Source: Schmidtea nova
Lineage: Eukaryota
Direction: 5' to 3'
DNA length: 64,000 nucleotides
Assembly: GCA_044892505.1 (NCBI GenBank)
Contig: CM097882.1
Location: 224,936,001 to 225,000,000, forward strand
Both the position numbers and the translations under genes were made by a program. The first letter of the stretch is position 1, and each line of letters opens with the position of its first letter. Of the stretch, positions 12,990 through 48,517 are shown piece by piece. The notes below the pieces were generated by a model, which was given only the letters and a program-made list of their open reading frames with translations, was not told the DNA's origin and searched no databases.

Positions 12990-13645
12990 TGTTGGGACTA
13001 TAGCAGTATGTAATCCTATGGTAACAATATAACTATCGTTTAACCAGTTGTGACTCATCGCAAGCAACGTTGGTGATTTAACTATTGAACCTAATACTCA
13101 GAAAAGATGAACAGTGTTACCAGAATTATAAGTGATAGAGTAATTCTATGGAATCAAGAGCTATCGATAGAAGATATGTACTCATTTCGATGTTCGGTCC
13201 CCTTCTTTTATAATAACGCTTTAACTTTCTATTGTTTATTTGTAATTCTTGTTTTTGCCCGAGAAACTATAAAAATATATTTGTTACATTTTTTTTCATG
13301 AGATGTACGACTAAATGTTAATTATAATTCTTTAAATAATAATAATAAATATTCTATTTCATCATACTACATTATTATCAATCTTGATAAAACTTGGAAA
13401 TCAAAGTTCTGTACTTAGTATGAGTCGATTGTAAATTCATATTCCTACAGTAGTACTGATTACAACGAAGCTGCTCGTATGGAGACTCGTGAAACAGATT
13501 CCTTAATATAACAATAACAACTAAAACTAATATTTTTCTTGAAATAATATAATGTTAAAGTGTTCATGAAATTCAGTCTAACAATAAAGATAATGATAAA
13601 TATTCAAGTACTATTAATATTGACGGAGCTTTAAAAATGGTTGAT

Positions 13646-14134
13646 CTATAGGGATTGTAGGAATACTAAAAGCAAATCAGATTTTATTAATAGAAATTGA
13701 TCGCTAATTGATAAGTCGGTTTTTCGCAACCGGAAATCTTGACCGATGATAACAAGAGTTGAAATGAGCAAGCTCCATGACAGTCCGTATTGATTGATTT
13801 CTGGTGGTGGCGAATAATCCTTTAATCGAGATTGATTGTGATCCAATGTATTGATTTGTAGATTTTTTGAGTTAGTCATTTCAGATTTGTCTGGAAAGTA
13901 TATTAATATTGATCCAGTTGTTGACAAGCATCTTCCAGTTTGTACAGCTTCTTTACGCATTCCAGTAGGAAAACATTTCTGCAATCTACTGAACTGGCAA
14001 TTGTTCCTTCTTTGAATATCGACTACACAATCTCCACTAGAGTAGAACTGATAATTGTTGTCATTTGATGAAAATGAGTCACTGTGAATGTCTTGGGTGA
14101 ATGGGTATATCGAATCATTGTTAACAGCTTGCAT
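13646..14134 (-). pseudogene. Nuclear receptor remnant (NR2/COUP-TF-like), first zinc finger missing
   Basis: GDCVVDIQRRNNCQFSRLQKCF.TGMRKEAVQTGR (second finger and T-box, two Cys lost); LBD signature DLSISDQFLLIK; no introns over this span. Confidence 0.75.
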
Positions 14135-15802
14135 TTTGTTTTTTTTTGATCAGCATGAAAGTGAAAATATGTAAATATTAAAACAACATCTATAATTTTA
14201 CTCCATTTAATAATTAATTTATTTATAAAATTGAAAATTTAATCTAAGGCACTACAGGGATCATAGTTTTTTGATTAACAGATCAAATATGATGTGGATT
14301 TTGATCGACCTACATTGATTTCGGCTGTTCTATATTTTAACTGATAATGGAAGCACGCTTGACTGATTTATAATTTTACTAATGTTTATTTAAATATTTT
14401 ATTGATTTTTTTAGATTTTAGATAATTTGCAATCCTCTTATAGCTTCAGCTCTCCAATGGAATTTTTATTCATTTCTTGCCCTTGTCGAATTGGAGGGAA
14501 AAAATCTTTTTATGTTTTATGCTCTATAATATATGTGAGTTTTTATATGTTTGTCTTATTATTTTTTCATTATACATAAATTAAGAAAAGAATAATTATC
14601 GGATCCTCTATTTTTGAGGAACCTTTTATTTAAAGCGTAGTGATTTATATGAATTTGATTTTGACCTTTTACTTTCGGGCCTTTTACCGAAATAGAATCT
14701 TATTTTTACGCTAAAATATCAATTAATTCTTGATATTTCATAATAGACAACAATTGAAAATGTTTTCATAGTTATTACTGATATGCATATCAATATCGTA
14801 TGGTATATCTTTACACGATATTCCAATCTTTATTCGTTTTATGAAAATGAAATCGAAATTTAACTGATAATTATTTTAATGCATGAAGCTTTTCTATAAA
14901 TTATTGCTTCAACACAGATTCTGTTTGCTGTCACTCTTGAAGTACTTTCTTCGTTCACACTTTTACATTCCTATAATATCTTTGTCAACCTTGTCAAAAT
15001 AATTTCACACATATTTTGTAGCTGTGTATGTTCCTCATATTTTAATATTTACTTTGAACAACAACAAAAATAATTCTTTTAAGGAAGCAAACTTTTTATT
15101 ATGTGGACATTATGTATGATCCTGCGACCGTCCCTTTACATCTACGTAAGTATGAGGCTGGACTTCGATGTCTCGTCGACACCATGGGATTGGACAGTTT
15201 GACAGAATTCACTCTATATCTGAACCCATACTGACGTTTCTGCATTGCAACAAGCTGGAGATACTCACAACTAGTAAGCAACTCGGAAGGTCAAGAAAAT
15301 AAACAACAACAAAAAATTCATTTATACACATACAGTGATTTTGCTCCTTGACTGAGAATACATCGATCTTTGAATAAGATTTATTGAATATTGAAAAAAT
15401 GAATCAATAAAAAATATGAATAGCTGGGGCATGAGCCGGTACTGATGTTGGGCCAGACAAATCATCGATAGTCTAAAAGAAAAATAAAATCAATATAAAT
15501 GAATAATATAAAAACAATAACAATAAATAACCAAGTATCAGCAATTCAGCAATATGCAGCAGAATCTGAAATTAACGAACCATGAATTAAAAAAAAGTAA
15601 TAACAATAAAAACTCACCCATGCGGAATAACAATAACTTGAAACTCTGACAAGGCGTGGGCAGATATCACCGAGAATCTACAATAAAATAAATTATAACA
15701 AAAAGATTCACGGATGAATAAACAAAAACCTACCGAATTAGGTACACATAGAAAAACATTAAAAATGAAATGCACACAATATCTGCATGCACACTAAATT
15801 CT

Positions 15803-15984
15803 GATTGGCTTGCCGGCAACACAATTTAGTATAAATACGGCAGCCAAATTCAGTACAAGAGTCAACTTTTACCAAGAGGTCATTCTCACTAAAGAGACAT
15901 TTTTACCAAGTGTCATTCTTCAAGGGATTAGCAATTGTCAGAAAACCATTGTAAATCGAGCTATTGTGGAAATAAAAGGTACGT
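15803..15984 (+). promoter_or_regulatory. CCAAT box, TATA box and first splice donor of unit A
   Basis: GATTGG 15803, TATAAATA 15830, AATAAAAG|GTACGT donor at 15979; same order in unit B (26157, 26183, 26291). Confidence 0.65.
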
Positions 15985-16739
15985 TGGTTTGAATCTTATT
16001 ATTATTGATAAACCCTCATGATAAAAATCAAATAAGTTGTCCCGAAGGTCATCTGATCTGACGGGATCTCGGGCCTCTCAGCGCAACACTTTCTTATGTG
16101 AGGGCTGATGCGGCGAGAGAGATAAGCGACTAAACGGGGGAAGGGTGCACGTAGACATCGATAAATCCTGCGGTAACCGAATGTCATGAGGATATGCCAG
16201 AGATCGTAAGTATATAGTACCCTACATGCAGATGATTCTATCCCCGATTTTACACAGAAATGATGCGGAGTACGAGCTGCATGCACAGTGGATAGGTAAA
16301 CCCATATCGATGCCAAAGTAAAATTAGTCGTATTTCGAGCGGATGAACACTAAGGGGGGAGAGATGATAACCCATAATAAAGCGACGTTAAACAATTTTA
16401 CACATCGAAATCAGACTAAGCACATAGTTTAAACAAATCAACCTACTAAATCGATAGATGATAGTCTGAATTATGACCAAAATTGTGTAGTAAAAGTGTA
16501 GGTCGACTACATAAAAATTATTAGAACAGTAACTGGTAGCTGATCAGACATTAGAAATAATAAATTTAACTCAGTGTCAACAACCGACGATCTTAAGTAA
16601 GTTTCGATTTAATTACGTATGCATAGATATATGCTGAGTATGAGCATGAGGGATGATGAGGTGAACGTGATTGTGGATGGGATGGGATGATGGATTACCG
16701 TGGTTGAATCATGTCTTATCTACGTTGTAACTCCAGATC

Positions 16740-17303
16740 ATGCCGAAAAGAACCCAGATCAGTTACCACTGTCAGTCGAAAGTGAGGAGCATCATAGGTG
16801 CCCCAATGAAGGGAGATATTCCAGTGGCAATCAGAAATGTGGCCGAGAGACATATGCGAGCCTAGAGACGCCGGCATGTCAACATGAGAGCGTCCACCGG
16901 TGAGACCATCTATCATTATCGAATCCGATTGGAAAGCGACTCCTTCTGGCCGGATATGAGAGACAACCATGCCACGACCTCACTAATGTGGTTCATTCAG
17001 TTCGAGGACGACCGAGGGAAAGTTCGCTGGATACTAACCTTCGTCCAGATTCCTATCAATCTCTTCCAACAGCTGGGATACATCTTTCTCAGTCCACCGA
17101 GGTGCAATACAATGGGAGAATCGCGACCCTACATCGACTCTCCAGGACACCGTGACATGCACCAAGAAGTATGGAGTCCGGAAGTAACACTACGGGAAGT
17201 GTTCATATACCATGACGAACTATGTTGGATTCCATGTCCCGTTTTCTATTATCCCGACGGAACCGGCAGAGAAGATAGAACTTGCGACCAAGATTGGATA
17301 TGA
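16740..17303 (+). pseudogene. Novel ORF1, copy A (187 codons, one TAG at 16863)
   Basis: ATG 4 nt after acceptor CTCCAG; MPKRTQ...ERHMRA*RRRH...WFIQFED..RWILTF..LGYIFL.PPRC..G E.RPY..SPG..DM..W.PE..L.E.FIY...LCWIPCP; aligns end to end with 27083-27652. Confidence 0.8.
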
Positions 17304-17527
17304 GTATGACGATTGAGTGAAGTCTCGTGTAGATGAAAATAAATTAGTTAATTTTGTACCTCTTTCTGTTGAATGCATGAAAGGTGTTGAACTGAGGTCT
17401 GGGTTTGATAGATTAAAAGTGTGATTGTGATCGATGGGGGCTGGAAGTGGGAAACGAAAATAAGTTAGACGATTTTGCTACCCTGAATCTTAGAACGAAT
17501 CGAATAACCCACTCAAATCTCTTTTAG

Positions 17528-18085
17528 GTGAATCCGGCTACTAACAATTCCAGTGGGTAAGAAGTACGCTCGTTACGACAACGTATCAGGGCCTTGGAGA
17601 GCCTCGTGAAGCGGCAGGATGCAGAAATAAGTGGACTACAAACGACCTGGTTCAGTCCCGAACCGGTCAAAGAAATCCAAAAACGCCGATACCGAGCAGA
17701 GCGGGCTCTAGAGGACCAGACCCGTGAAGTCGCAGCCACCAAACTGGACCTCAGTAATTACTTAAGAGCCTCCGCGAAAGACTTCGTGACGCAACAATTG
17801 AGACCATTGATTCTAACAAGCACGTTCAATCGTTGGATCGAATCGGCTAGCGTATCGAACGGAACACAAACCAATACGGGCTCTGACTTTATAAGAGAAC
17901 TTCCAAGACAAGTTCCCCAACCGGAGGGATCGAAACGCACCAAGAGAAGGAACCACCTAGGCACTAAGAGGCGTCGAGAAAGACGAGCATACCCGGAAAG
18001 GATTGGGATCGAAGTGGATCTCTTGAGCGGGTTGACAGAAAGGCAATTGTTGGACCTAATCAATCCTGATGTATTACTGGATTAA
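17528..18085 (+). pseudogene. Novel ORF2, copy A
   Basis: Follows acceptor CTTTTAG; coiled-coil-like N-half, TTWFSPE, TQT, Arg-rich KRRNHLGTKRRRERR, Leu-rich tail; TAA at 17558; AATAAA overlaps the stop. Confidence 0.8.
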
Positions 18086-18350
18086 ATAAATGTATTATAG
18101 TTAAAGTGTAGTCTTATGAATGAATGTGGAATGAATGAGAATTTAAGTAAACGATTGATTGAGTATATACAATTCATTAAAAAGCCAAAGGAAGTAAGGA
18201 AAGTAAATCAACCCTAGAAAGAAGAACTATTAGGTAAATAAATGGGGACCGGAATAAAACAACACAAACCTTCTATCGGTAGTGGTGGACCCGTGAATAA
18301 ATAAGGGAATAGTAGCCGCAAGGTTGCTTACCTGCCTTATCATTTCAAAA

Positions 18351-18441
18351 CGTTGATACAGTTTCAACATGATGAGTAGTTAGGGATACATTATGAGTAT
18401 CAGCGGGGGAAGCGTTTTATGTTGGTGAGATTACCCTAACT
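18351..18441 (+). ncRNA. Conserved structured cis-element near LTR end, copy A
   Basis: Outer stem CGTTGATAC/GTATCAGCG, 8-nt 5' bulge AGTTTCAA, inner stem CATGAT/ATTATG, loop AGTTAGGG complementary to CCCTAACT downstream. Confidence 0.6.
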
Positions 18442-19134
18442 AATGACATCAAGCATAATCTTTGTTGTAAAATCTAACCAACAAACCAGCACCGAATAGA
18501 ATAACAGGACGAGCAAAACATCAAACTAACATACTTTGCTCGTTACAAAGTATGATACTTTGTATGAACAGAATGATGCTATCTCTTCAAAGATTTGACC
18601 AGAAATGCGCCTCCGAATATTTTTTTCTCAATTGATAAGAGGTGTTGATCTTTTGTTAACAGTATCTTTAAAATTATCAGAAAGAACCTTGATTATTGGT
18701 GAAAATTTTTACAATACACAAGACTGTTAAAAATAATGAAAATGGCATCACTATACATACATTTTCACAGCATTTAATTAAATGGATGCAGTAAAACAAA
18801 AGCTTCTAAAATGCTTTTTCTGTTGAATTATTTGAATAAATTACTTGAATTTTAATTTATTTAAGAAATATTTTATTTTTACTAAAATATATTTATATTT
18901 ATATATAACATTTAATTATTTAATTTAATAAATTTAATTTTTATCAAAATGTTCTTTTTCATAAATTTTAGCTACTTGAATTTTTTTTACGATTTACTTT
19001 TACATTTTTCATATTTGAGCTATCAAAATTAAAATAATTAATTATAAGATTCTTTTTATTTTTATATTTACCTAATTATCTAATGAATTTTTTAATAAAT
19101 CCTTATGTGTTTCTAATTACTTTTGTTTATTTGG

Positions 19135-19420: not shown

Positions 19421-20690
19421 ATCAAAGTGGTGGGTTGTTGACCGTCAATATGACCTTGAAGTTGCTATGGCTCACACCACCAACTCAAAATTTGTCCGCG
19501 CCGGTATTTCTCGGGCCCTTCCGTCAGATCGGTCTTTAAATCACTTGATTTGCGGTGTCTACAACGAGTATTACCTTATTTGTAGTTATTAAAAACAGTT
19601 ATTTCAAGCAGGCAAAGGGTTATTGATCCCAGAAATGAATTCATACACTTGTATTCATACACAATTCATTCACTTGTATTGATACATTTTATTTTCGTTA
19701 GTATTTGCGATGGTGATATTGGTAATAACCTCAAGTATAGTTTCTTTTTGTTTACAATGTGTGATTGCTATAAATTATTCTACTTTTATTGTTAATTGCA
19801 ATAACTGTATTTTGATGTACCCCTATTGTGTGGGCGATGATTTTCTGCACTTGTATATGTTTTATTTTGTTGAGGAAAGTGATTGTGAGCTGGATTGTGG
19901 GAATAATAAATTTAAAATGGAAATTATGAAAACAAAAAAAATCAATAAATTATCGAAAAACCAATTACTATAGAAAATATTTTGGATTAAGAAATAATAA
20001 GTTTTAAGAAATTGATTAAAAAAAGAAGTTATAAAAGAAACGAACAGATATCAAAAGAAAATTGAATGGACAAAAGAAGGATTGTTTGACTATTTATCCA
20101 CTGTGAGTAATTGTTATTTTTTTCTTATATTTAATTAAATAAAAGTTGTTGTTCGTAAGCTGTTTTTGGTTCTTTTAATCATTTGTTATTTGTTTTAGTT
20201 GTTGCATCCAAACACCCAAACACATTTATATAACATTCACCCCAGCTGTCCCAAGACAGATTTTATCGGAGACTGCTGGGCTGAACAGTTTTCTCTTACA
20301 CATACATTTAATTACATAAATACAAGATTACACAATATAATCATATAATTCCACAATATACAACATCAATCTCAAGTACAATCTGGTCGCTACTCAATTC
20401 GGGAACCAATTATTCCTTTAGAAATACATATATTCGGGAATATTCAATAGCCGTTATTTTTATCTAAATGACTATTATTTTCGTAGTTTTTCCATATTAT
20501 TATGTTTTTCACCTTTAAAATTTAAGTAAACTTTATTTATATCCTAATCCTATTGTCTATCTTGCATTTTTACATTTTTATTAAAAATTTAACATTTAGA
20601 TTTTAAAATTTTGCCGAGGCCTTAGTACAGGCTTTGACTTAGTAAAACTTTCAGTAAAATTTCGGGGTTTTTATCCAACAATATAATTCT

Positions 20691-20870
20691 ATTATTATTA
20701 TCAATAATTCTCATAATGACTATAGATCAAATTTTTTTTATAAAGAATAACACAATATTTCGGCACAGCCTTTGTACACACTTGATAAAGACTGCGCCGA
20801 AATATTGTGTTATTCTTTATAAAAAAAATTTTGATCTATAGTCATTATGAGAATTATTGATAATAATAAT
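20691..20870. repeat. Fold-back (palindromic) repeat family, copy 1
   Basis: ~83-bp near-perfect inverted arms around a 13-bp spacer; followed by AAAAAGATCAAAGGTGAAA..AAGATAATTATG shared with copy 2. Confidence 0.9.
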
Positions 20871-23800
20871 AAAAAAAGATCAAAGGTGAAAAAAAGATAA
20901 TTATGATAATATAATTCTAGTTTAAAATTTCCCTGTAAATTTGAAGTGAACTTGAAAGAAAAATGTAATTCAAAAATTTAATCAAAAATATAATCAAAAT
21001 TTAATTAACCTTGTTTAAAATAACAAAAGCTTTTTTTTTGCAAATATATAAATAATCACAACCTAATTGGTTGTTTCATGTTGCAGCCACATTTTATGCT
21101 TCATACTATCAATTATCGATAGTATTTTTCGATTGGAATTCACAATGGTTAACCGTTGTTTAACTTTTCACATAGTAAATTTTGTGATTTAAATCATTTT
21201 TTTTGATGATTCGATTTAGTTAGGATTTGTATAGAAATATGGATTATTCGCGCTAGAGTATTGATTTTAGATGAACTTCAACAAATGAGTGCTTAGTGGA
21301 TAACATTGGTAAATTGTTAGCTTATGTTGGATGATGAAGGTAAGCCCATCAACACATTCCTCCTATCAGAAAATTATAGTGTGGGGTTCTTCAAATATAG
21401 AGTAAATGTTTATGCGGAACCCGTCAATACAACTATCAATCAAGGAGAAGCAAACCCCAATATCAATTATTCCTTACTATACAATCAATCCCAATACCGA
21501 TCATGACATCAATATCCATCAATTTGACATTTAGTATTCGACACTTGATATATGACTTTTGATATTTGACATTTGACATTATTATTCAATCTATTCTTAG
21601 TGTAAATATTTGATATTATTGTGATTCTTATAACAATTTATTTTAGATATTGTATGGATGTGTTTTTTATTTATTATGAATGTGATCTATTATAAAAAAT
21701 GTATATATTATTAATAATTTTTATTTTTAATAATTGAAATGTATATATTTTACTTGTTAATAAATTATTTTATTTAGACATTATAATATGAAATAAAAAA
21801 TTATTAAATAATTGCACGAATTATTGGTAATAATCAGGACAGGTGGAAACAGGAAATTAAAAAGATTATTACTAAATAATTGCATGAGTTAACAGATGGA
21901 AACAGGAAATTAAAAAATTTATAAATTATTACATGAGAAAAATTTGATATATAAAGGAACGAAAAACTTCAAAAAGTGCCCACAATTTTCTGGAATTCAA
22001 TTTCAGCCTAAAATTATCGAAATTTTTCTCAAAGGGAAATCCTGCGAGAACTTAAATTTTAAGGACAGCACAGAAACGTCCGATACAAGTTTTAGTATAA
22101 AAAAATAAAACATAATACATTTAAAGAAAATAACAAGCACACAATAAGACACGCAAAATAAAAATATTCTTAAATAAATTCCTCAAGACAATTTTTATAA
22201 TTAGAGTGTGGTTGGGTGGTTTAGATTTTAGAAATTGTCAATTGGTAAATTTTTGTTGTTACATAAAATTTTTTTAAGAACTTAATTTTTATTATATATA
22301 GTTAACACCAGTGCACGTTAAGGTCAAGAAATTACAGACCTCAACACTTAATTAAGTTTCTTGTTTCAGTTTGTAGACAATCGGTAGAAGAACTCTCCTA
22401 CCCATGGACAGACCTGTAATTTCAAGTTTTCGATGCTCTATTTTGATCGATTGTACATTTTATGTTAGAATTAATGAAATTCGTCTGCGTTGCTAGCGTT
22501 TGATACTAAATGACCTCCACGTTATGTGACTTCGGTACCAGAATTCCATGTTGACTTCACCATGTCAAAATTCATTCGACAAAGCCACGCGTGTCACCTA
22601 TCAGGATTTTATTTTCACCGAAATTAGATTTTTTATCATTGTGATGAAAATACAATATTGTGTTTTGGATTATTATATCCTGATATTCTAGCTTTTGAGC
22701 GTTTTCAAATAGATTTTTAGATATTAATTCGAATTTCTAGGACATTTCAAGCAGGTTCTATGTGTAATTTAACTAAGGTCAGATGGTCGGGTTAACTCCG
22801 GTATATTAACTTTTGTGTTAAATTTATGAGGGAGTACCATGAATGATAGAGATTTTTCTTGAACAGGTCCAACCGAAATTTTTGGCCTCGATTTCTCATA
22901 AACAGATATTCTAAGGGTAACTATATTTGAGTACAGATTATAGGTCCCTTTTTCGTAACTTGGAGAATTCGAACCTTGCATCAGCTTTTTATATATATAT
23001 GTAACTATTGGAGTACTAAAAATATCAAATTTAAGTATTAACCTTTCTGGGTAGTATGATCGATCGTATAGGCTTTTACAAATGGAATGAGAATTGAATA
23101 TAAATTTCTAGTAAATTGAATCTTATAGAATCTAAAATTTAAGTGTTCAATTTTCTTTGGGATAACAAGACAGTCTATAGGGTGTTGTTGACTAAGGCGT
23201 ATGTTACTTCTGCAAGTAAAACAATTATTTTCATGGGGTTTTATTGGGTGGAACTTAGACTTTTACAAGTAATGTGTCTGATTTTAGGGATGTTTATGCA
23301 TAGATGAATTCATTTTGGGTACATAGGATGTTATCAATTTCAAATAGAATAAGGAATGATATACGATGTTGTGATTTGCAAGGAACTCATGATATGAGGT
23401 GTTTGAAGTTGTAACGAAATTGTGTCAAGGATGTGATTTAAAATGAATTGGTGATGTGGAGTGTTGTAACTTTCAATGAATGTGTGATACGGGATGTTGT
23501 AGTTGCAAAGAGATAATTATGTATTTATTAATGAGATGGTTAATTCTCGGAGTGGTAAATTTGATTGTAAATGATGCTATTGTACGAAATGGGTAGTTTA
23601 ATGATGGATGTGAATGAGCGAATTTTTTGTATGGATTTTCTGGATGTACTATGTTGATGGATGTTAATGAGTGAAACGATGGGTATGTGTATTGGTAGAA
23701 GAATAAATTTTGTATGGTATTAGATATGGATGGTGTTAATGAATGATATGGATGTATTAATTTGCAACTATAATTATTTCGTGATATCGTGGGGGGGGTA

Positions 23801-25800: not shown

Positions 25801-27082
25801 GCATAAAATTTTAATCAATACAAAAAATTAAATTGAATAATAATAAAATAGCTAACAAGACATTGACAATTCATCAGTACACAGCGAAGCCTGAAATGAA
25901 TGAGCAAATGAATTAAAATGAACAATAACAATAAAAACTTACTCTTGCAGAACGCAAAGAAAAAATAGGACAATGAGTAAGCTACTTAAAACTGACAGTG
26001 AGTGGGCGGACCACTCGGACAATACACAATCTAGAATACAATGATTAAATAAAATAATGTAATGCATCAATAAACAATGAACTCACTGAGTTAACAGCAG
26101 AATGACAGACATTAAAAATGAAATAGCCGACAAAACAACATACAAACTAAATCCTGATTGGCTGACACAAACTGAAAACTGCTATATAAGCAGTAGCCAA
26201 ACTCAGAAAGTTAATGTCATTTTTCACCAAGTGTGTCACACTACTAGTATCGGAAAATCTCTGTAATAGTAATTGAATTGGAAATAAAAGGTATGAAGTA
26301 TTTCATTGTGTCTTATTTGTAAACCCTCATGATCATAAAATGCATAAGGTATCCCGAAGGTCGTCAGATCTGACGGGATTCTGGGCCTCTCAGTTCAGCG
26401 CATTTTCATGTGTTGACTGATGCGGTGAGCGGATTAAATTAACTATCGGGGGAAGGGTGCATATGGAGGCCTGTATTGAATAACATTGGTGCTGGGGAAA
26501 CAGTCGGTGAAAGGAAACATAGATACCGTAACATCACTAAATAAACAACCAAACATTAGTGAGATAATCGAACCAGGGCGATGAGACACGAAAACCTGGT
26601 AAAGGCCAACTAAGTGTCACAGCAAATGAGATCTGTACACCCATGAGAATACAGCATGAAATTTTATGAATCCGACTCCCAGAGTGATGTAGTTACGAGA
26701 AGTAGACAATCGAGAGTAAACAAATAACATCCAAATAAAACGAATGTGATCAGACATACGATCAACATAGTGGTAGCTGACACTAATCAATGAGCGAGAC
26801 TACGTGTAGATCAGTCTAGTACAATATACATACGATCTTTTGGCTATGGTAGATCTAAACATCGTAGGTTACGTAGGCCATTTATATCGTAAATAGTGAC
26901 AAATAAATTAAATAATCAGTTACAAAAACCGAGCAATCACCATTTCATCAAAGGTAAATTTAAAACTAAAGTGTTGATGGATTGATGAAGGTATGAATGA
27001 GCTTGAGTAATACAGGAAATGACTGATCAGTGTGATGATGATTTAACCAACTTTGCATTCTTATCTCTCTATCTCTCAGAAT

Positions 27083-27652
27083 ATGTCCCCGAAAATATCA
27101 CGACGCTACCGTCGTCTGACGAGGAAACCAACGATCATAACCAGCGGTTCAAATTCTGAAGTTCCGATGCGAATCAAAGCGATATCAGAAAGATACATGA
27201 GAGTATGGAGACGGGGCCATCAGGACCTCACTAGTATGACAAAGATCGCTCAATATAATCTTACGATAAGATGGGAGGGCGACCCATCATGGCCGCTATC
27301 AGAATCAAACCAGGTGCGGAATAACCCCAAATGGTTCGTACAATTTGAAGACAACAATGCAACGCCCAGATGGCTCTTAACATTCATGACCATCTCAGGG
27401 AGAGAGCTACAACAGATGGGATACATTCTCTTGGAACGCCCCAGGTGTATCCTTACAGGAGAGCTACGACCGTATTCTAACTCACCGGGGAATATGGATA
27501 TGGACCAGGACAAATGGATGCCAGAAACCAAATTATGGGAGATATTCATATACAACAATCGACTATGCTAAATCCCGTGCCCTGAGTATTTCGAGTCTGG
27601 TAAAACACGAAAACCGAACAGAGAATGTGACCAGGAATGGGTCGAATTTTGA
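27083..27652 (+). pseudogene. Novel ORF1, copy B (TAA at 27569 replaces Trp)
   Basis: ATG after a pyrimidine tract ...CTCTCAG; reading continues IPCPEYFESG...CDQEWVEF* and matches copy A. Confidence 0.8.
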
Positions 27653-27892: not shown

Positions 27893-28444
27893 ATGGACGA
27901 GAATACAGATGACCACCGTGAAAATCGTCTATTGAGGAAACGCATAAAAGTCTTAGAGAGCTATATGAAGCGACAGGAGTCCGAGATAAACCTACTGAAA
28001 ACAACCTGGTTTCATCCCGAGCGGGTCAAAGAGATCCAACAACATCGATACCGGGCAGAGAGAGCTCTAGAAGACCAGACCAGAGAAACCGCCACGGTCA
28101 AATTAAAGTTAAACAATTACCTTCGAGCATCTACTAGAGAATTCGTAGAACAACAATTGAAGCCCCTGATACGTGTTAGTACGTTCAACCGATGGGTAGC
28201 GTCAGCTTGTACCAACAGTGAAACCCAAACCGAGGGAAGCTTCACTCCTATCGCGACCATTCCAATTGAAATTACTAAGCCTGAAGGGTCAGCACGAGCG
28301 AAGCGGAGGAATCGCTTAGGCGTGAAACGACGGCGAGAAAGAAGGGCATATGCCGAAAGAATTTGAATTGAGATCGATTTGCTAAGCGGTCTGACGGAGA
28401 AACAACTCCTCAATGTTATCAATCCGGATGTTTTGTTGAATTAA
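27893..28444 (+). pseudogene. Novel ORF2, copy B (TGA at 28364)
   Basis: ATG directly after TTTTAG; TTWFHPE, YRAERALEDQTRE, ETQT, KRRNRLGVKRRRERR, IDLLSGLTEKQLLNVINPDVLL. Confidence 0.8.
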
Positions 28445-28720
28445 ATAAATGTTTTGGTGTTAAAAGTGTTGTCATATGATTGAATGTAGAAAGTATGGAA
28501 AATTCGGTGAATGATGGAATAAATAGGTATATACAATTCATTTTGAAAAGGTATCGAGGAAAAATGTTAAGTAAACGAAACCCTAGGCGTAATAAAAATT
28601 TGTGATGATAAATTGGGACCGGAATAAAACCACACAGACCTTCTATCGGTAGTGGTGGACCCGTGGATAAATGAGGGAATAGTAGCCACAAGGTTGCTCA
28701 CCTGCCTTATCATTCTACAA

Positions 28721-28811
28721 CGTTGATACAGTACCAACATGATGAGTAATTAGGGACAGATCATGGGTATCAACGGGGAAAGAGTGTTTATGTTGCCGAG
28801 ATTACCCTAAT
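28721..28811 (+). ncRNA. Conserved structured cis-element, copy B
   Basis: CGTTGATAC/GTATCAACG, bulge AGTACCAA, CATGAT/ATCATG, loop ATTAGGG with CCCTAAT downstream. Confidence 0.6.
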
Positions 28812-30779
28812 ATTAACATCAAATAAAATCTCAGTTCAAAGACCATACCAACAAACCAGCAAATTCTTAATACACTACCCTATCAGAGCAAGATTAACAC
28901 AAGTGTACCTGTGTGAGCTTGTCTTTTTGGACTTTGGGAAGGTCGTTTTGTGAGCGATGAAATGGCGGTGAGCGACTTATCTGATCAACTGAGAAACCCT
29001 GTGTTGAATGGTTCCTACCGAGTTGAATTCAAGTGCAACACTACGAAACCATCGGGAAGGTCTAAACTCATTGATAGTTAAAAAAATGTTCCATGAAAAG
29101 TGTCGCTGCGCTATCTTTTTAGATTTTTTCTTGAAACGAAACAATCGGTCCGCCCTAAATTTCATCCTACATAAAGTTTCTCAGGGATTGGAATAGTTAA
29201 AAAATTGTGTTAGAACAAGTGATTTAACTCTGATACCTGAGAAAACCTTAAATTCAAAGCAGGCAATGACAAAATTAATTTTCTATCACTCTTAACACTA
29301 ACAGAATATAAATCTATACATTATATCATTTAATTGACAACACGAATCATCTGAGTCTCCTTAGCACTAAATAGAAGATGCATCCTGAAAGTCAGAGAAT
29401 ATCCAGGATATCACCATTGATTGAGTGAACTGTTAACATTATCCAATATTTTTCAAAAGAAGTCAAATAAATAATATTTTGTCACAAGTGACAATTTAAT
29501 TGCGATGACAGTGACTTATGAGCAGTACTCTCTAACAATGTTCTGTCATACTACCGCCATAGCTGACCAAAAACATTAGCAAAATTAGTAGTTGTGAATG
29601 ACGAAAGCCGCCTATAACGACCTTAAGATGTGTCACTGATCACATGAATGGGTCGAAGAGACGGTAAACAGGAACATAGGAATTACGGTGACTCACTTTT
29701 GTGGAAGCAGCATCACAACCGTCGGGAAGAAACTTTTTACAACTTATGTCTTACGTCGATACTGATATATTCCCAGGCGAGTCACCAACTAGTGAACTGA
29801 CAAAGAGCAAGTTACCAAGCAAACATTAAAGAAAAGTCAGAAAAGTGTAATAACGAAGGAGGCAGCTTAAAAATAATGCGCGTGTAATTAGACAATTGAA
29901 GCTCTAAAATAGTATCTAGTTTTAGTAATTCTATAAATATATTATTCCTCGTGCGTAAGAGTTGTAGTTTTTGTGTGCACTTAAGAAAATGTAGAACAAA
30001 AACTCCTAATGAATGAATTCTTTGACCGGGTACGTAGAGAAAAACTAAATTCAATTATAGCAAAGGAGATTTGGATTTTAGAATATTAATTTTTCATATT
30101 TTGTAAAGCATATTATATGTTGATTTTGATAAATTGAAATTAAAGTAAGATTAAAAGTTAGTTTAGTCATGTGACTTTTTATAAGATTCGATATTAGCAA
30201 TTTTGTTGAGAGAAATAGATTCAGTATGAACAGCAGTTGATAAATCGAATTGATAAACCAAATTCGGATGAATAATTTATATTTTTGATAGAATTCAAAT
30301 AACCATTTACAAAATCTTCTTATTTAAAAAAACCCAATGACAATTAACAAAACTGGATTATTAAAACAATCCAATAAAAAAGTAAAAATAAATGATATTT
30401 TTTTATATAAAGTAAATTTCTTAAACACAATTTTAATTAATTATTTTCTTTTAAATAATCAAAATTCTTTTTTTTCGTTTTATTTTGATATGATAGCAAC
30501 ACCCAAATCATGTTTTTGAGAAATATGAGAAAATTAGGGAAAGGAAACCGAGCAGACATTTATAGATATATTGCGGACAATATTACTGAATTCTCAATAT
30601 TTGTATATTAAATGCGTATTGAGAATAGATGAGCACATAGTTTTCAGTTGATAAATGATGTTGGACGACTATTAACATATTGGTTCATCGTCTTTGCATC
30701 CTGATCTCCTATCAGACACTCCGACATCCCCGCCAGACAAAATTAAACTCCAACCACGGTAAAAATGTCAAGGTAAAGG

Positions 30780-30995
30780 AACATAGAAAGATAAGAGTAC
30801 CAAAATCTTCTATCGGTGGTACCTGAGCTAAAATAAATTATTTGGGCATTAACAGTCGCGGAGATGCAGCTCCAACGTTGCTTAGCAACAGGTGCAAAGA
30901 GAAGGGAGTTTAATTTTATGTTTCTTCTAAGTGGTCGAGTGAGTTGCTAAAGGATTATATAGATCATTTAATAAACCACCTAAAAGGCTCCAACA
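30780..30995 (+). mobile_element. 3' end of another LTR (E)
   Basis: TTCTATCGG motif, stem-bulge-stem at 30865-30896, TTTATGTT, ends GGCTCCAACA; similar to 53550-53684. Confidence 0.6.
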
Positions 30996-31111
30996 ATTAT
31001 AAAACTTAAAAACTTTATTTCATTTTTTAGCTTTTGATTTTATTAAAATCAGAAGTTTGGAAAATAATTTTACAAAAACTTTCAAAGTATTTTCAAAAAG
31101 AAAAATTTCAC

Positions 31112-31360
31112 CTTCTTTTGACGAAAAGTTTTCAACCTCTCTCTCGCTGGAATTTTCAGTATTAGTAACAGAACTGATGATGTCTACATTGTTCTGTTCC
31201 AATTGATATTTTCGGAAGCAGCGGCAATTGTCCACCAAAGAAAATGAAACGAGGCACATAACTAACATTGCAAAGAGAAAGAGAAAAAATATCGATATTG
31301 GAAATCTTGGAGGAGGATAAAATTTAGAACTGGTTGAATTATAACTTGTTCCATTAATAA
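31112..31360 (-). CDS. SLC52A: Riboflavin transporter exon 4
   Basis: Acceptor TTTCAG in phase 1 with exon 3; FYPPPRFPISIFFLFLFAMLVMCLVSF matches the SLC52 'F...FF.LL..MM...LVAF' helix; donor AAG|GTGAAA is tentative. Confidence 0.8.
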
Positions 31361-32512
31361 CTGAAATTATAATTGTGAGAATGTAATTAAATAAATATAT
31401 AAATAAAAAATAATTTAAAAAATTAAATAATTAATTGAATGAATGAATGTTGCGGATTGATGTGGTATATAAATTCCTTATGCACACATTACTCTACATT
31501 GAATAAAAATCCTCGTAGAGATTTGTTTGAATATTGCAAACAAATTGTGTTTTTGAATTTAATAAATATTTTGTATTGCTTTCAATGAACGTTATTAATA
31601 CAAAAAGTATTGTATCTAACAATAATAATATATATTAATCAAATAGTTGAAAAATTTTCATTAAATAAAATTGAGCCATTTTTTGAAAGTTGGGCGAATC
31701 TATCTTTGTTGTAACAAAGTATTTAAAGTTTTACGTTTCAGTAAATATAAAAATATTGATAAACTCTAGCAGCCAACTTTTGTGTATTGCAGTTATTTAT
31801 AATGTAAATTTATTATCTAATACAGTTTATTATAAAGATGTCTGAAAAATAAAATTATTGCTTTACCAAAATAAACTTGTCCCTTTTATTTAAACAAATA
31901 GTTTAATTCTACGTTTAGCTGAATAATAGAATTTATGGATAAAATATAAAACAAACGGTATTTTTAACAAAAATGACTCTATCGTTAAACGATTAATCCG
32001 TGATACAACCGGAATCAGTTCTGAGGGTACAAAAATATTTTCATTAACTGATTAACTTTCTTTATTTAAAAATAATACTTAATAACAATAAATTAAAATA
32101 ATTATATTTTAAAATATTTTATTCTAGTGCCTCCGTCATATATATATATATATGTGTGTGTGTGTATTTATATGATAATTAAATGAATATATTATATTAT
32201 ATATTATATCATAAATTAAATTAAATTAAATATAAGTTATTTACAAATTAAAGACAGTTGTTTAAAAAAGTAAAAGCACTTGCAGAAATTCGAATTACAA
32301 AAATTACGCACATTTACAAGATGGATACAAATAAATAAATGAAATCTCCTACTGCAGAAACACAACGCAAGCTCAGAAGTTTTGGAAAATTATTTAAAGA
32401 GAAGAAACAATTTTATTCGAAAAAAAAATATTTCGATCGCGTTTTATTTGTATTTTATCTTTTACCTGATTAAGGCAAACGCTGAACGGGGTACTAAAAA
32501 CCTGAGCCCCAC

Positions 32513-32697
32513 ATCAATAATTTCCATAATGGTAAGACTAGATCAAAATTTTTTTTAACAAGTACTCAATATTTCGGCACAGCCTTTATCAAATGTATAT
32601 TTCATCAAAAATACACACTTGATAATGGTTGTGCCGAAATATTGTGTACTTGTTAAAAAATTTTTGATCTAGTCTTACCATTATGGAAATTATTGAT
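32513..32697. repeat. Fold-back repeat family, copy 2
   Basis: ~75-bp inverted arms; same right flank as copy 1. Confidence 0.9.
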
Positions 32698-37800: not shown

Positions 37801-38159
37801 AATCCAATTTGAAGACCTTTTATACGGAGTGTTTAAATAATAAATTGATTTTTGATTAGAATTCTTATTGCAAAATTCACTGTAATTGATTTCACAAAAA
37901 CACCTGTTAATATAAATATGACCAAATCAATTCCAAACATGCCACCTCCGATTAATTGACAGTCGCAATGATTGGAATTTATTGGTATTTAGTAATATAA
38001 TTAATTAATTAATTTTAAAGGCTTTGTTACTGTTAATCTAAAATTTATATTAAATACTTTAATTAACAATGAATATTATTATTATTATTATTATTATTAT
38101 TAAACTATAAAATAAAATGGAAATTTATTAAAATTAATAAAACACAATTTTTTAATATA

Positions 38160-38207
38160 TTTTGGAATATATTTCGACAGTTCAGCTGTCATCTTCAGGC
38201 TATAAAC
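38160..38207 (-). ncRNA. Minimal hammerhead ribozyme, degenerate stem I
   Basis: CUGAAGA-U-GACAG(cugaa)CUGUC-GAAA-UAUA-UU in the PLE sense orientation. Confidence 0.6.
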
Positions 38208-38645
38208 AAATTCAATAAAATAAAAATTGATCTTATTTATACGCTTATTAGTGATTACATAATCACATGTGCACAATCCAATAAACTTTTATTAACCCTA
38301 GTAAAATTAATAAAAAAAACTCACAAAATCCATATAGATATTGTAAGTAGATAATGCATTTTGTATGTGTATTTTAGGACCTAAAGATTTTATCATCAAA
38401 GCCTCACAATTCACACGTTCATAATTATTTTTAAAACCCCTAGACAATATTTTGAAATTGGTATTATCTGTAATGCACTTAAACTCATGTACAGAGACGA
38501 TGGGCAGTCTCTCCAAAGTATATGGCATTACATCCATTACAAGTAAAACGATATACGAGATCAGAACATAGACCAAATGGCGTCACAGATTTATTACTGG
38601 AGAGTTCCCGAACTTTACAAGACTTAGAAAAGGTAAAAATAGGCA
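38160..38645 (-). mobile_element. Penelope-like element 3' fragment (GIY-YIG endonuclease and pseudo-LTR)
   Basis: LVYRFTCNGCNAIYFGET; SVHEFKC..NFKILSRG..NYERVNCEALMIK..P; second pLTR copy at about 43390-43560. Confidence 0.88.
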
Positions 38646-38649
38646 CACG

Positions 38650-39000
38650 ATGAGTCATCGTTTTTTTCAGAATTTTTCTAACTCCGAAAATAGTCACGTC
38701 TTGGGTCATAATGTAGATCAAAGTCATTGAACAAAAACGTATGTTACTATTTATAGACAAATATAATGTTGTGAGCTCACGATGACTCATCCTTTTTCAA
38801 AAACAATTTCTAAGACCCCATTAACAAATAATATTTCAAAATTTTTCCAAGTCAGGTTAACAAAGAACTTTTTTCGAAATTATTTTTGAGTCCCCCCTGC
38901 AACGCGAATTAAAGGTCGTATGGAAAGAATCTTGATTCTTTTGGAATCAGGAAAAACTTCTTAGACTTTAACCTCAGAATATATTTTTTCAGGGGGTCAT
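38650..39000. repeat. Dispersed repeat, inverted copy at about 42380-42690
   Basis: Shared TGTTGTGAGCTCACGATGA(C/G)TCATC, CAAAGTCATT, GAAAATAGTCACGT and TTTTCCTGATTC blocks. Confidence 0.75.
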
Positions 39001-39876
39001 TGATTTAGTCAATAATGGCCCTAAAGTCTTTGTTAGTATTGCATTTGCTTTGCATTAATTAAAACAAGATACAATAATACATTCATTTAAACTAGAAAAT
39101 AATTCAAAAAAATAATGGGAATTTAAATATTGATGATTTATTTTCAGAGTTTTGATTGAACTTTTGATTCCCATTTCTAACTTCATTCATTATTAGATCG
39201 AGCTGATATATGTATTTGTGGGATTATTGAACATAATTATTTAATTTTTCATTGTTTTTTCTTACTTTAATCAATGTAATATTCAATTTTTTATTGTAGC
39301 AAGAGCTCGTTTGAACCGTTGAATATCTTTATATAATTTCATGCGAACTAATACCAGTGTTTCATGTTATTTCAAAACTGTTTCCAAAATTATTCATTCT
39401 TTCTGATGGTCTTACTGTAAGAGCTTTCAGCCGTCTAGGTCTATCTACTATATCCAAAAGATCTAAAACCACAACTGTATTAGGGAAAATACATCTTGTT
39501 TTATTTTGCCATTGATCAAAAACAATTGTTTTGTTTCCCTTACAATATATTATCAATAATGAGCTTATTATTAAATATTTTATTAAAACTTTTGAATATA
39601 CTTATGTTTAAAATTTACTAAATATACTAATTTTTATATACTAAAATTATCACATGTACTGCACTTGTATTGCAATGTATTTGTTAAATAATCATAGTTA
39701 TGCACATTAACAACGATATCTGTATAAATACTGTTTTCTAGTAATTATTTTTATTAAATGAATCAATCTAATTTTATTGTAACTTTACTTAATTGGTTAA
39801 TGTCGAATGAAAAATAAATGACATTGTAAAAAGTTTACAAAACCCTGGTATCTTATAACAAAAGAAAATCCCATTG

Positions 39877-40661
39877 ATTATAAGCGTATTCTTAATCAAA
39901 AATCAATTTCAGAAAAGGAATACCATTTTTAAATGGTATTTTGTCCTCTTTTCGAATCACCCATGAAATGGTCAAGAATTATAGTGGCTTTTATGTATAT
40001 AAACAGGTTCTAGAGAGATCTCAATCTTTCTATATTATAAGCGTATTCTTAATCAAAAATCAATTTCAGAAAAGAAATACCATTTTTAAATGGTATTTTG
40101 TCCTCTTTTCGAATCACCCATGAAATGGTCAAGAATTATAGTGGCTTTTATGTATATAAACAGGTTCTAGAGAGATCTCAATCTTTCTATATTATAAGCG
40201 TATTCTTAATCAAAAATCAATTTCAGAAAAGAAATACCATTTTTAAATGGTATTTTGTCCTCTTTTCGAATCACCCATGAAATGGTCACGAATTATAGTG
40301 ACTTTTATGTATATAAACAGGTTCTACAGAGATCTCAATCTTTCTATATTATAAGCGTATTCTTAATCAAAAATCAATTTCAGAAAAGAAATACCATTTT
40401 TAAATGGTATTTTGTCCTCTTTTCGAATCACCCATGAAATGGTCAAGAATTATAGTGGCTTTTATGTATATAAACAGGTTCTAGAGAGATCTCAATCTTT
40501 CTATATTATAAGCGTATTCTTAATCAAAAATCAATTTCAGAAAAGAAATACCATTTTTAAATGGTATTTTGTCCTCTTTTCGAATCACCCATGAAATGGT
40601 CACGAATTATAGTGGCTTTTATGTATATAAACAGGTTCTACAGAGATCTCAATCTTTCTAT
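39877..40661. repeat. Tandem array, 5 x 157 bp
   Basis: Near-identical units; each contains the hairpin AATACCATTT-TT-AAATGGTATT; the four 60-aa ORFs are a by-product. Confidence 0.97.
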
Positions 40662-42819
40662 GATCACTTTAATAATTATATAACATTAACTATTAATTAG
40701 ACAATTCACAATGAAATATGTCCAAGGGTTGATGAAAATGGAAATTGGGAAACTTTAAAAGATCTTTGCAAGAAACATCAAGATGCTCAAAGATCAAAAA
40801 AAAAGAAAAAGATTATTAAAAATATTTTAAAGTTAACATTTTGTTATACTGGATTATTAGCAACTGTATTGAATTTTAGAAAATAAATATATTGTTTTTA
40901 TTATATATTTTTTGAATGTACTGTTTGATTAAAACACGATTATAGTAATAATATTTATTATTTAAAACACGAGTAATCTTTATCTCCACAATATAATTTT
41001 TAAATTTTTTAAATAAAAACGCTCTTATTACTGAAAACTAATAAAAAGTTTAAATTTGTCAGATATTATTTGAAAAATTTGAAATTTAATTTAATTTGTC
41101 TCATGAATAAATCTTAATTTGTTTTAATAATTAAAATTAAATCAGAATTCAGGAGAAAGAAAATATCCAGGAAGAAGAAGGAAGTCAATTGGAAAGAATT
41201 TAGTATTGGAGTGATCAGGATATTTTGAAGATCGAAATAATTCATAAATAAACATTTCGGACAAGGCTTAACACTGTTACCTTATTATTGTATTTTAATA
41301 AACCCTGCTAACGATAAAGCAATTTATATTTATATTTATAAGAAGAAGAATAAATATGATTGGACAGTCAAAGTATAAAAACAAAGATCTCACTGAAATT
41401 TGTCATAATTTCAAAATGCAGTCAACAAATAGTTTCCAACATGCTGAAATGTTCCACACCTATAAGAAGAATTATTTTGAAAAACCAATTGTATTCAATT
41501 TTCATTTTCTATCAAGTTTACCTAGACAGAATTTTCCTACCTATGATCAACAATTTCCAATGAAGATTGTTATTTAATAAATAACATATTCAGTCATCAA
41601 TGATAAAGATGCAGTATTTCCCTCGACTTTTCGCGAGATACCATTTGTAAATGATGAACATTTGTATGTATATGCAATCATTCAAGGTAAAAAACAAGAT
41701 CCAGAAAATCGATTAACTCTAACTTGGGAAATTAAGAAAGCTGTACAGACTGTAGTTTAGAAATAAATGTATTAATGTATTTTGTTTTTTTTAATAAATA
41801 ATGCATTAGACATGCAGTTCAAGTGAAACGCATGTGCATTGTGTGTGTGTGTTTAAATCTGATTGGAAGGCTTTGTTTTAAATACTGGAAGGCTTTCGAA
41901 AATATTCATAATTTTAAAATGAGTAATGAAGACACTGCAAAAACATAAAAATTATAGTATTTAAGTGATCCTTTAGAAATTCAATTGGCATGTCCAACAA
42001 AACTCATCAAAACTAAATACCTTCAATTGATGGCATTCATTCAAAATAAAGAAGGAAGCATTAAATAAAATCTATCTAAATATCCAGTTGACTCTCATAG
42101 TATTTATCGATGAACGTTATGCAGTATACTGTAATACATTCTGAGAGATAAAGTTCAAAGAAAAAGAATCATGGTATATAACCATTAGTATCCGAAAATT
42201 CAAGATTGATGCAAATAATATATATTCACCAATATGGACTATTGATCGTACAAAATTATTTCTTGATGTCAATTTGTATTAGTTAGAAATAAATGTACTA
42301 TTGTTTCTTGTTTTAATTAATGAAGGATTAGCAAAGACTTCATGGCTATTTGCGGCTAAAGCGAGGACACTATGAAAAAATATATAATCTGCGATAAAAA
42401 TCTTAGAATTTTTTCCTGATTCAAAAACACTAAAGATATTCAACCTTTGGTTCGAACTGTAAAGGATGTCTCAAAAAAATTTCGAAAAAGGTTGTTTTGT
42501 TAAACGGGCTTAGAAAAAATTTTCAATGTTATTTATTAGGGGGGTCTTTGAAATTTTTTTTTAAAAATGATGACTCATCGTGAGCTCACAACATTATAGT
42601 CTATAAATATTAACATATGTTTTTTCAAATGACTTTGATTTACATTATAACTCATCACGTGACTATTTTCAGACTTGTGACAAAACGATGTACTCACTTC
42701 TACCTACTTCTTAAAAATTATTTAAACATTAGTATTTCCAATATTTTCTAAAAAAGATTTTCTAAAATTTGCAAAACTCTCAGAAAACAGTAAAACTATA
42801 ATTATACCAATGCTATCAT

Positions 42820-43010
42820 TCAATTTATTTTTATTTATTTATCTTTTGGTTTCATTTTTAATCTCTTTTTATTTATCAATAATTTTCATAATTTATATGA
42901 CTATAGATCAATTTTTTTGTTTTGGGATTTTTGGTTGTTAAGTACACGATATTTCAGTACAGCTTTTATTAAGTGTGTATTTCAAATATACACTTGATAA
43001 AGGCTGTAAA
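42820..43010. repeat. Fold-back repeat family, copy 3 (decayed, reverse orientation)
   Basis: TCAATAATTTTCATAAT..GACTATAGATCAA, ACACTTGATAAAGGCTG; conserved flank appears on the left. Confidence 0.7.
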
Positions 43011-43495
43011 ATAAATGTTATTTATTTCATTATTATTACTATCAACACCATCATTCATTCCCGTTACAACATCACATGTTTCAACCAATTCATATTCAGT
43101 TTTAATTAAGAGCAGAATATCTAAAAACTTAGCAACCTTATATTATGAAGTTTGAATCATTAACAATACAGGTTTCATGGGTAAATTATCCTTATGTACT
43201 TTTGGAAGACCATATAATTTAGCATGTTGTGACCCTTGAAGGCCAAATGAATTGATAATATTTTTATCTATGTGGCTATTTAAAAGTAAGTCATGAAGTA
43301 AAGATATTAATATGAAATCATCTTTTAAAGATTGATTTTACATTTTAATTTGCAGAATACAATATCTTCATGCATTTTGAGAGTTTTTAATTAATTTTAT
43401 TAAGGTTAATAAAAGTTTTATTGGATTGTACACATGTTATTATGTAATCACTGATAAACGTATAAATAGGATCAATTTTAATTTTATTGAATTTG

Positions 43496-43542
43496 TTTAT
43501 GGCCTGATGATGACAGCTGAGTTGTCGAAATATATTGAAAAA
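43496..43542 (+). ncRNA. Minimal hammerhead ribozyme in an isolated PLE pseudo-LTR
   Basis: CUGAUGA-U-GACAG(cugag)UUGUC-GAAA-UAUA-UU. Confidence 0.6.
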
Positions 43543-43980
43543 ATATATTTTAAAAAATGGTGTTCTTTTATTAATTAATATCATTATTATTATTATTATT
43601 ATTATTTTATTGGTTTTCCGAGTTGGCATTTTATAAATGTTTCATAAGAACCGAAAATTCTACATTTGAATAATGCTGTTTCGAAATTGATACACCGAAA
43701 CAAATAAAATAAATTTGAAAAATAATGCAGTAAAGGATCAGTTATGAAATTATATATTCACTAATTATAATTTTAAATTCTCTTTTTTTAAACTATTTAC
43801 ATGTGACCCCTTTCGATATCGTGTTTATGATGTCTCATTTTTTTTAATTCAGTTTGATTATTTGTTTGTTCCGATTTTGTCATCAGAAATCAAATTGTAA
43901 ATTAAGATGTTTTCTTGTAAAATATTTTAATTTTAATAATAAACAATAATTTCGAAATTTTTAGTAAATAAAAAACTTAC

Positions 43981-46025: not shown

Positions 46026-46306
46026 AATCATCAAATTGACCATATTTCGATATAAAAATATTAAATAAATTTAACTTAAAAAATTATAATAATTAAGATA
46101 TCAATTTCTTATTTGACGTTTAAATACTTTCTCAAAAATCAAGGTTAAATATACTTCAGACAAACATGTGTATATGATTGTATATTAGTTGTCAAACATT
46201 ATTTTAAATAAGAAAATTCATTGCATATGAATATAACGGAACACTATATAACTGCTGAAAATAAAGTTCTAAAATGTGCTAGTAATAATTATTATATAGT
46301 ATATTA

Positions 46307-47715: not shown

Positions 47716-48159
47716 TATATACAGTACAATATATGATCGACACTGAAAAGAAAAATATATATATAAGTATATTAATATTTTGGTATTCCATGTTTAAACC
47801 ATGTGTATAAATTTTGACTTTATGCTGGCCATATTGAGAACAGAGTAAATTTCACTGCACTGAACATACTGTTACATGTATTTATATAAACTATTCATAT
47901 TTACAGTATTTATATTTTAATTATTGGAATGTAGTGGTATGTTGAAATTGAATGATTAAATTGTTTGAAATATTATTTGGGTTTAAAATAATTCTTCATG
48001 CATAAATTAAGAAAAAATACTTTGTTTATATAATACATTTATCACGACTTTAAGTTTTTTAATGAATAACACAATATACTTTTTCAATGATGTGGAGCTA
48101 TATGTGCAGTTACATGAACTGTAATTTTATAAGCAAAAAGATTTATGAAATCTTAACAT

Positions 48160-48358
48160 TGTTGGTTGTTTAGTTGATTTATTTAAAACTTGATTACTAG
48201 GTTCACAATAACTCCCACAACGGCAAGAAGATGATCGTCCTCATCACTTGTATACCCGTACTCTCTTATTGGAGATTGCATTGAAACTGTTTACAGTGGT
48301 ATGAGTTCCAGTGAGCAGATGAGCTTCGTTTCCAAAACTACTTCTTATGGTCTACTAC
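48160..48358 (-). mobile_element. 3' end of LTR F
   Basis: Ends AACAACCAACA; GCTCATCTGCTCACT shared with LTR C; stem with AGTTTCAA bulge at 48249-48295. Confidence 0.65.
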
Positions 48359-48517
48359 TGTTGGGCTGGTAGAAGTAAAATATTATTTGTTTTAGTGCAT
48401 CAAAAAAAAGTACACACAAAAAGAAGTGAATTCAAATCTCACGATAACACATAAGAGCATTAGACAAAAAAATAGCACAAAAATTATAGAATAAATAAAG
48501 CACAAATAGTAGGCATA

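Follow-up and report, generated by a model that had tools for sequence, protein, structure and literature searches.

Burro-type LTRs of the window

The window, the 64,000-nt stretch analysed here, is part of a 1.25-Gb, AT-rich animal genome. A preliminary description of it had pointed to a stem-bulge-stem RNA near the 3' ends of six diverged LTRs. LTR 3' ends were set by multi-locus comparison (30 loci each for families A, C and D), which confirmed this position for all six sites; each lies 110–140 nt upstream of the 3' end of an LTR of a Burro-type giant gypsy element (Table 1). The solo LTR that holds copy A is flanked by a probable 4-bp target duplication with one change, and its last 250 nt are 85% identical to family A2. 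The A2 element carries a long ORF with gag, CCHC, protease and RT motifs, and that of family I a long ORF with CCHC and protease motifs. A full-length element of family G was found to combine 4.1-kb LTRs with a single ORF of 5,006 aa, in which Pfam matches identified gag, CCHC, MATH, PR, RT, RH, IN and ankyrin repeats, with a viral fusion glycoprotein placed between gag and pol. This order matches that published for the giant, gypsy-like Burro LTR retrotransposons of planarians, in passages that cover the proteins and do not mention LTR RNA structure, the primer-binding site (PBS) or a missing polypurine tract (PMC6431247). On this basis the host is probably a planarian. The assignment to this group is based on the single polyprotein of about 5,000 aa (family G) and on LTRs that run from TG to CA, with a target duplication and a tRNA PBS. 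The leaders are very long, with 3–5 kb and many AUGs between the PBS and the first long reading frame.

Open frames of 145–174 aa were observed within the presumed U5 of LTRs A and B, at 16866–17303, 17561–18085, 27047–27571 and 27893–28366. Those at 17561 and 27893 are homologous to each other, and none of the frames had a significant Pfam match. A second hairpin-rich region, less conserved, lies directly after AATAAA at 16013–16120 (A), 26324–26430 (B) and 57617–57500 on the minus strand (C), and in LTRs A and B a 5' splice-site-like sequence follows immediately after that AATAAA.

The window also contains a Tc1/mariner-type transposon (46290–47731) with 152–167-bp terminal inverted repeats and a transposase (HTH, DDE_3) split by a stop. 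A tandem array of a 157-bp unit (39877–40661), with copies 98–99% identical, lies between long diverged inverted repeats (38107–39088 and 42287–43596; 76–84%, about 5 kb apart) that possibly represent an old DNA transposon. Host-gene-like exons are found on the minus strand at 13646–14149 and 31020–31430, with matches to a C4 zinc finger of the nuclear receptor type and an SLC52 riboflavin transporter. Neighbouring stretches contain long frames that appeared Polinton/Maverick-like by eye (packaging ATPase-like, polymerase-like).

Table 1. LTRs, copies of the terminal RNA domain and its modules in the window.
Feature	Position	Strand	Remarks
Solo LTR with copy A, Burro-type gypsy	15446–18491	+	About 3.05 kb; TG...CA; end from 30 genomic copies
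Whole LTR-terminal RNA domain, copy A	18259–18491	+	Covariance-model match 18259–18419, 71 bits; terminal stem
Module 1, copy A	18269–18279	+	7-nt loop 18271–18277, two closing C-G pairs; near-invariant between families, outer stems family-specific
ACCC-containing single strand, conserved	18287–18293	+	Could pair with primer tRNA T-arm (positions 50–56) or module 3 GGG
Module 2, copy A	18301–18340	+	Long covarying stem; tetraloop 18318–18321 (mostly GNRA); near-invariant 1x3 internal loop beside A-U, G-C and U-G pairs
Module 3 (stem-bulge-stem), copy A	18351–18405	+	9-bp outer stem, 8-nt bulge 18360–18367, 7-bp inner stem, 1-nt 3' bulge
Predicted loop-loop pseudoknot	18379–18440	+	18379–18385 with 18434–18440; family A: 7 bp (p about 0.05)
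Module 4, terminal stem	18416–18491	+	U-rich strand 18416–18425 pairs with LTR end and, in 5' LTRs, pre-PBS spacer
Copy B of domain	28631–28861	+	Module 3 at 28721–28775; LTR end 28861; 73 bits
Copy C of domain, in 3' LTR	57109–57350	-	Module 3 at 57249–57202; 171 bits, member of model training set
Copy D, LTR end of old family, decayed	30865–30995	+	Outer stem partly deleted; no model match in window
Copy E, decayed LTR end with domain	48160–48391	-	57 bits; stems partly lost
Copy F, strongly decayed, D-like LTR end	53551–53684	+	79% identity to D over 77 nt; no model match
Possible seventh copy, very decayed, newly noted	13066–13186	-	Motif anchors; 12 bits, E 0.12
LTR C, 3' LTR of decayed element	58457–57109	-	
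Conserved hairpin and GC box	58458–58494	-	At usual polypurine-tract position before 3' LTR
Decayed gag-like frames, element ending in LTR C	59980–62158	-	CCHC knuckles; Pfam zf-CCHC matches

Fold and conservation of the LTR-terminal domain

The stem-bulge-stem is genuine. It forms one module within a larger element of ~250 nt and makes up about a quarter of it. The architecture described for all six sites, weakly for F (an outer stem, a 5' bulge of 7–8 nt, an inner hairpin and a single-nt 3' bulge), was found at A, B and C with a bulge of 8 nt, but D, E and F turned out to be decayed relatives. The minimum-energy structure is this fold for A and B; C shifts to another register, and D, E and F fold otherwise. 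As z-scores from single-sequence folding ranged only from -2.0 to +0.6, support for the structure comes from comparison and not from folding energy. Some differences of window copy A are private decay: its bulge has TC where the majority of its 30 family loci have CC.

The sequence pattern of module 1 gave 13,215 exact matches in the genome and a control pattern gave none; copy numbers here are counts of exact short patterns and hence lower bounds. A T-loop is defined as a five-base loop closed by a reverse-Hoogsteen U-A pair and followed by extruded bases (PMC4810234). Judged by its letters, module 1 appears T-loop-like in its U...A spacing and variable sixth base. Contrary points are the U at position 57, the C-G closing pair and the two closing pairs being free of covariation. 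The 1x3 internal loop of module 2 may resemble a C-loop. A long-range pairing of module 1 with an upstream AGGTC element was considered and rejected, as the element was not consistently found.

Pairing of the GGG in the module 3 loop with a downstream CCC, which had been suggested for A, B and C, was partly retained. The CCC-containing strand sits within module 4, and a partner of 5–9 bp is present in 7 of the 11 families as well as in I1 (5 bp) and in window copy B, but the pairing is absent in family G and amounts to 3–4 bp in C. Shuffling per family gave p values of 0.002–0.7, mostly non-significant, and the pairs that flank the pseudoknot change jointly between A, B, H and K. Module 4 forms a stem of 7–10 bp with matching changes in all 11 families and ends 1–2 nt before the PBS. 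As it spans the LTR end into the spacer, the full stem can form only in the 5' LTR. The alternative pairing of CAACAT with ATGTTG proposed earlier is available as 6 bp in 5 of 11 families but shrinks to 2–4 bp in the other six. In 11/11 the ATGT strand has the LTR end plus spacer as its partner instead. By definition a U5-IR is a stem in U5 that takes in the end of the LTR and goes no further than the PBS, and module 4 has this form in every one of the 11 families.

The claim that the stems covary was upheld. RNAalifold recovered the architecture from a sequence-only alignment of 12 copies, with double changes in 27 of 36 pairs. In the same alignment 89.5% of cells were paired under the hand-set structure, compared to 33–45% for slid controls; the values for 45 model-aligned copies, an alignment that leans towards the structure, were 86.6% and 35–43%. 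In 20 representatives, columns were taken ungapped from invariant anchor motifs. Fourteen of 20 proposed pairs in these columns were at least 85% paired with a double change, as opposed to 15 of 380 non-partner pairs, and five of the remaining six were invariable. The 11 families have 34 invariant columns in common, and 22 of these are unpaired. The number of G-U pairs (35) relative to A-C mismatches (14) favours a plus-strand RNA. A covariance model, which the preliminary description had named as a check, was built without A, B, D or G and still scored A at 71, B at 73, E at 57 and G at 65 bits. The same model missed window copies D and F and found 5 of 7 D-family loci tried (23–41 bits).

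The last ~250 nt are the LTR part most widely shared between families, and upstream matches connect some families only. The domain was found in 89/89 usable loci (90 picked) that were chosen by PBS alone and in none of 15 control stretches (115 kb). The LTR families are mosaic in that C, C2 and J are 73–77% alike in upstream sequence and differ in their terminal domains, which suggests that the domain may recombine as a module.

An Rfam 15 scan of the window and 10 family loci returned nothing over the domain at E<=10. Its below-threshold miRNA matches stem from long near-perfect, MITE-like palindromes at 20668–20893, 32513–32697 and 42818–43007. A three-block pattern gave 0 matches in viral contigs and one in metagenomes, on a bacterial-looking contig free of any model match, which was judged to be chance. 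A literature search yielded no description of the domain structure; the original Burro paper may describe PBS or LTR features. The domain is a real structured RNA of a known functional kind that is apparently new to description. To our knowledge, cis-acting RNA structures of LTRs come mainly from probing of single elements (HIV-1, Ty1, Ty3) and are rarely conserved between families; here a multi-module fold, rich in invariant loop bases, is kept in more than 10 LTR families that are otherwise mostly unalignable, in more than 13,000 copies. It also provides a short diagnostic signature for the annotation of Burro-type LTRs.

Primer-binding site and the opposite element end

Downstream of the 5' LTR come a spacer of 6 or 10 nt and then the 18-nt PBS, which is complementary to host tRNA-Pro at 18/18 positions and has 3,081 exact matches in the genome. 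The PBS of a retroelement is recopied from the primer in each cycle, and the perfect match therefore points to ordinary tRNA priming of the minus strand. The spacer is 6 nt long, 10 nt in family G, and its length is mirrored at the other element end; these long mirrored spacers suggest that integrase may trim beyond the usual two bases. Host tRNA-Pro genes with UGG and CGG share the PBS-binding end and differ in the anticodon. They lie in long tandem arrays (UGG, 308-bp unit, C1:459.6 Mb; CGG, 713-bp unit, C2:112.0 Mb), and there was no AGG tRNA-Pro gene among the matches listed (first 100 of 211). Every family found uses the same primer. Looking for families that combine this spacer with a different primer gave 18 matches, most of which look like altered Pro PBSs and the rest unrelated flanks.

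Contacts between the domain and the primer beyond the PBS were evaluated against shuffled tRNAs. Positions 50–56 of the tRNA have a complement of 6–8 bp in 11 of 12 representatives. However, the conserved loops match the free part of tRNA-Pro no better than they match shuffled tRNA: of 150 shuffles, 146 attain an equal 6-bp conserved run. The CCAA of the bulge has three possible pairing partners, namely the LTR start (as CCAAC), the anticodon loop of the UGG tRNA and the bases at the start of the PBS. As all three are invariant, sequence comparison does not choose among them.

At the other end of the element no polypurine tract was found. The longest purine run in the 40 nt before 30/30 3' LTRs was 4–6 nt, at junctions chosen by a conserved upstream hairpin. 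This 17-nt hairpin has 2,987 exact genomic matches and is followed by a GC box, a spacer of 6 or 10 nt and the 3' LTR; within a family this spacer is as long as the one on the PBS side. The GC box is similar to the 3' end of tRNA-Pro and can pair with the PBS. The PBS side and the 3' LTR start can form 20–25 bp (-24 to -33 kcal/mol), which 0–1 of 500 shuffles equalled; the usual LTR inverted repeat accounts for part of this pairing, and only with the family G 5' end did cognate pairs come out best. End-to-end pairing may serve to circularise the genome, or may supply a primer for the plus strand in imitation of the tRNA 3' end. As the Burro-type group lacks a polypurine tract, how it primes is a testable question.

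Candidate roles and comparison with known systems

The preliminary description had offered several roles. Of these, a priming signal is the one we prefer, with confidence that is evenly balanced; the analogy to hepadnaviral epsilon was not supported, and no known ribozyme core was found. More specifically, analysis of the domain and its surroundings suggests, with a moderate degree of confidence, a platform that would position the primer beside the tRNA-Pro PBS and control the start of reverse transcription. The positions of TATA and AATAAA would place the domain in U5, and thus within the 5' leader of genomic RNA. Through the loop-loop pairing, the bulged stem would be docked to the terminal stem, next to the annealed tRNA. 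The invariant loops (the T-loop-like heptamer, ACCC, the 1x3 loop and the CCAA bulge) might, speculatively, contact tRNA, RT or Gag, and the 20–25-bp pairing of the PBS side with the 3' LTR start would constitute an alternative, PBS-closed state. A platform is favoured by the co-occurrence of domain and PBS, the perfect PBS, the terminal stem that tracks the PBS boundary, the widely shared last ~250 nt and the invariant unpaired columns. Against it stand the tRNA contacts at chance level and the pseudoknot, which the most abundant family, G, lacks and which is weak in C. If correct, the platform would amount to a covariation-backed model for the start of reverse transcription in a giant, envelope-bearing retroelement.

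A position beside the PBS would also suit a packaging or dimer signal. The bulges and loops would then bind Gag or nucleocapsid and the loop-loop pairing would join two genomes, which we regard as possible though doubtful. Retroelement 5' leaders combine such roles, with Gag binding the Ty1 pseudoknot (PMC4974528), and the many invariant unpaired bases fit as well; such a signal could exist alongside the platform. However, the apical loop is not self-complementary and has only 3 nt in family G, the terminal stem follows the PBS boundary precisely, and a signal entirely upstream of the PBS would presumably also mark spliced RNAs. The 3–5-kb leaders with many AUGs make special control of expression plausible, and the domain could be an export response element, a poly(A) control, a splice signal or an IRES. 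This is distinctly unlikely, as the reading frame is kilobases away and, of the AATAAA candidates, those closest to TATA-like boxes lie 200 nt or more upstream of the domain. YAG occurs at the bulge in 7 of 11 families but is absent in the other four, and a 3' splice site at the bulge was rejected as 4/11 families have no AG there.

Cleavage in each LTR by an unrecognised ribozyme would give unit-length or circular RNA as in plant retrozymes, the LTRs of which contain hammerheads (PMC6765202). That precedent, the compact multi-helix fold, the 22 invariant unpaired columns and the pseudoknot speak for catalysis, which is nevertheless very unlikely. The Rfam scan showed no hammerhead, HDV, twister, pistol or hatchet over the domain at E<=10, the hammerhead core as generally known occurs in 0/11 families, and a cut in U5 would be expected to separate R from the PBS in an autonomous element. 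An HDV-like topology built on the earlier alternative pairing was discarded since its second helix is not conserved, and scans with commonly known motifs for group I, group II D5 and the K-turn gave 1, 3 and 1 of 11 families for group I, the K-turn and group II D5, respectively. Extremely improbable is protein priming of the epsilon kind, in which RT would copy the bulge into a short oligo that is moved to an LTR end. As there is no polypurine tract (no purine run above 6 nt before 30/30 3' LTRs), such priming is conceivable for the plus strand, and the coarse shape is the same. The earlier claim that CAACA is complementary to the LTR start TGTTG holds for CCAAC and LTR nt 2–6 but fails for the following base (G 9, A 6, T 4 and C 1 in 20 representatives); as this base varies, CAACA is not conserved, and the base that would template the first T is found in only 6/20. 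The LTR of family G ends in CCACCA with the bulge unchanged. The perfect tRNA PBS and a 5,006-aa polyprotein with no terminal-protein domain in Pfam also contradict protein priming.

Hepadnaviral epsilon requires a terminal-protein domain and a bulge-templated oligo (PMC8903280). What remains of the resemblance is the bipartite stem-loop of lower stem, central bulge and upper stem; the Burro element differs in being tRNA-primed and in carrying an integrase, and it has neither a terminal-protein domain nor a conserved base to template the first one, so that the terminal protein, tRNA-free priming and templated oligo are all lacking. T-box stem I and other binders of the tRNA elbow (PMC4810234) share a T-loop-like motif and a bulge that shows a Pro codon followed by A, but the Burro domain has only one T-loop candidate, places its modules on separate helices and has no Rfam T-box match. 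A T-box riboswitch, which is marked by a specifier codon that covaries with the tRNA, an interdigitated double T-loop and an antiterminator, was rejected on the ground of the single T-loop candidate and the missing Rfam match and because no family with another primer was found. A bolder form of the platform, in which a tertiary-folded RNA device would grip the tRNA as a T-box does (T-loop at the elbow, CCAA on the UGG anticodon loop) and switch the PBS between two states, one open and local, the other closed and circularised 5'-3', with the plus strand primed without a polypurine tract, would be the first in an animal retroelement; we consider it unlikely.

Returning to the platform as such, the closest parallels are other leaders structured around the PBS. 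Retroviruses and Tf1 have a U5-IR stem, a structured U5 ending at the PBS. The same likeness extends to the HIV-1 U5/PBS domain, where PAS and the A-rich loop contact the primer (PMC13191261); the corresponding Burro candidates are a 7-nt T-arm complement and a 4-nt anticodon-loop complement. The Burro domain is larger and more conserved between families than the HIV-1 one, but its candidate tRNA contacts are not above chance. Ty3 has a bipartite PBS (PMC5371799, PMC11381356), and further context is given in PMC8532177 and PMC4558846. In Ty1 a pseudoknot beside the PBS is needed for efficient initiation, and a packaging role was not demonstrable according to the passages concerned (PMC4974528, PMC3592414). 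Common to Ty1 and the Burro domain are the pseudoknot beside the PBS, pairing of the 5' and 3' ends (CYC5/CYC3 in Ty1) and the role in initiation that is proposed here. In Ty1 these elements are located around the PBS and downstream of it, with R taking part, whereas the Burro domain lies wholly upstream, occurs in more than 10 diverged families and carries several invariant loop motifs.
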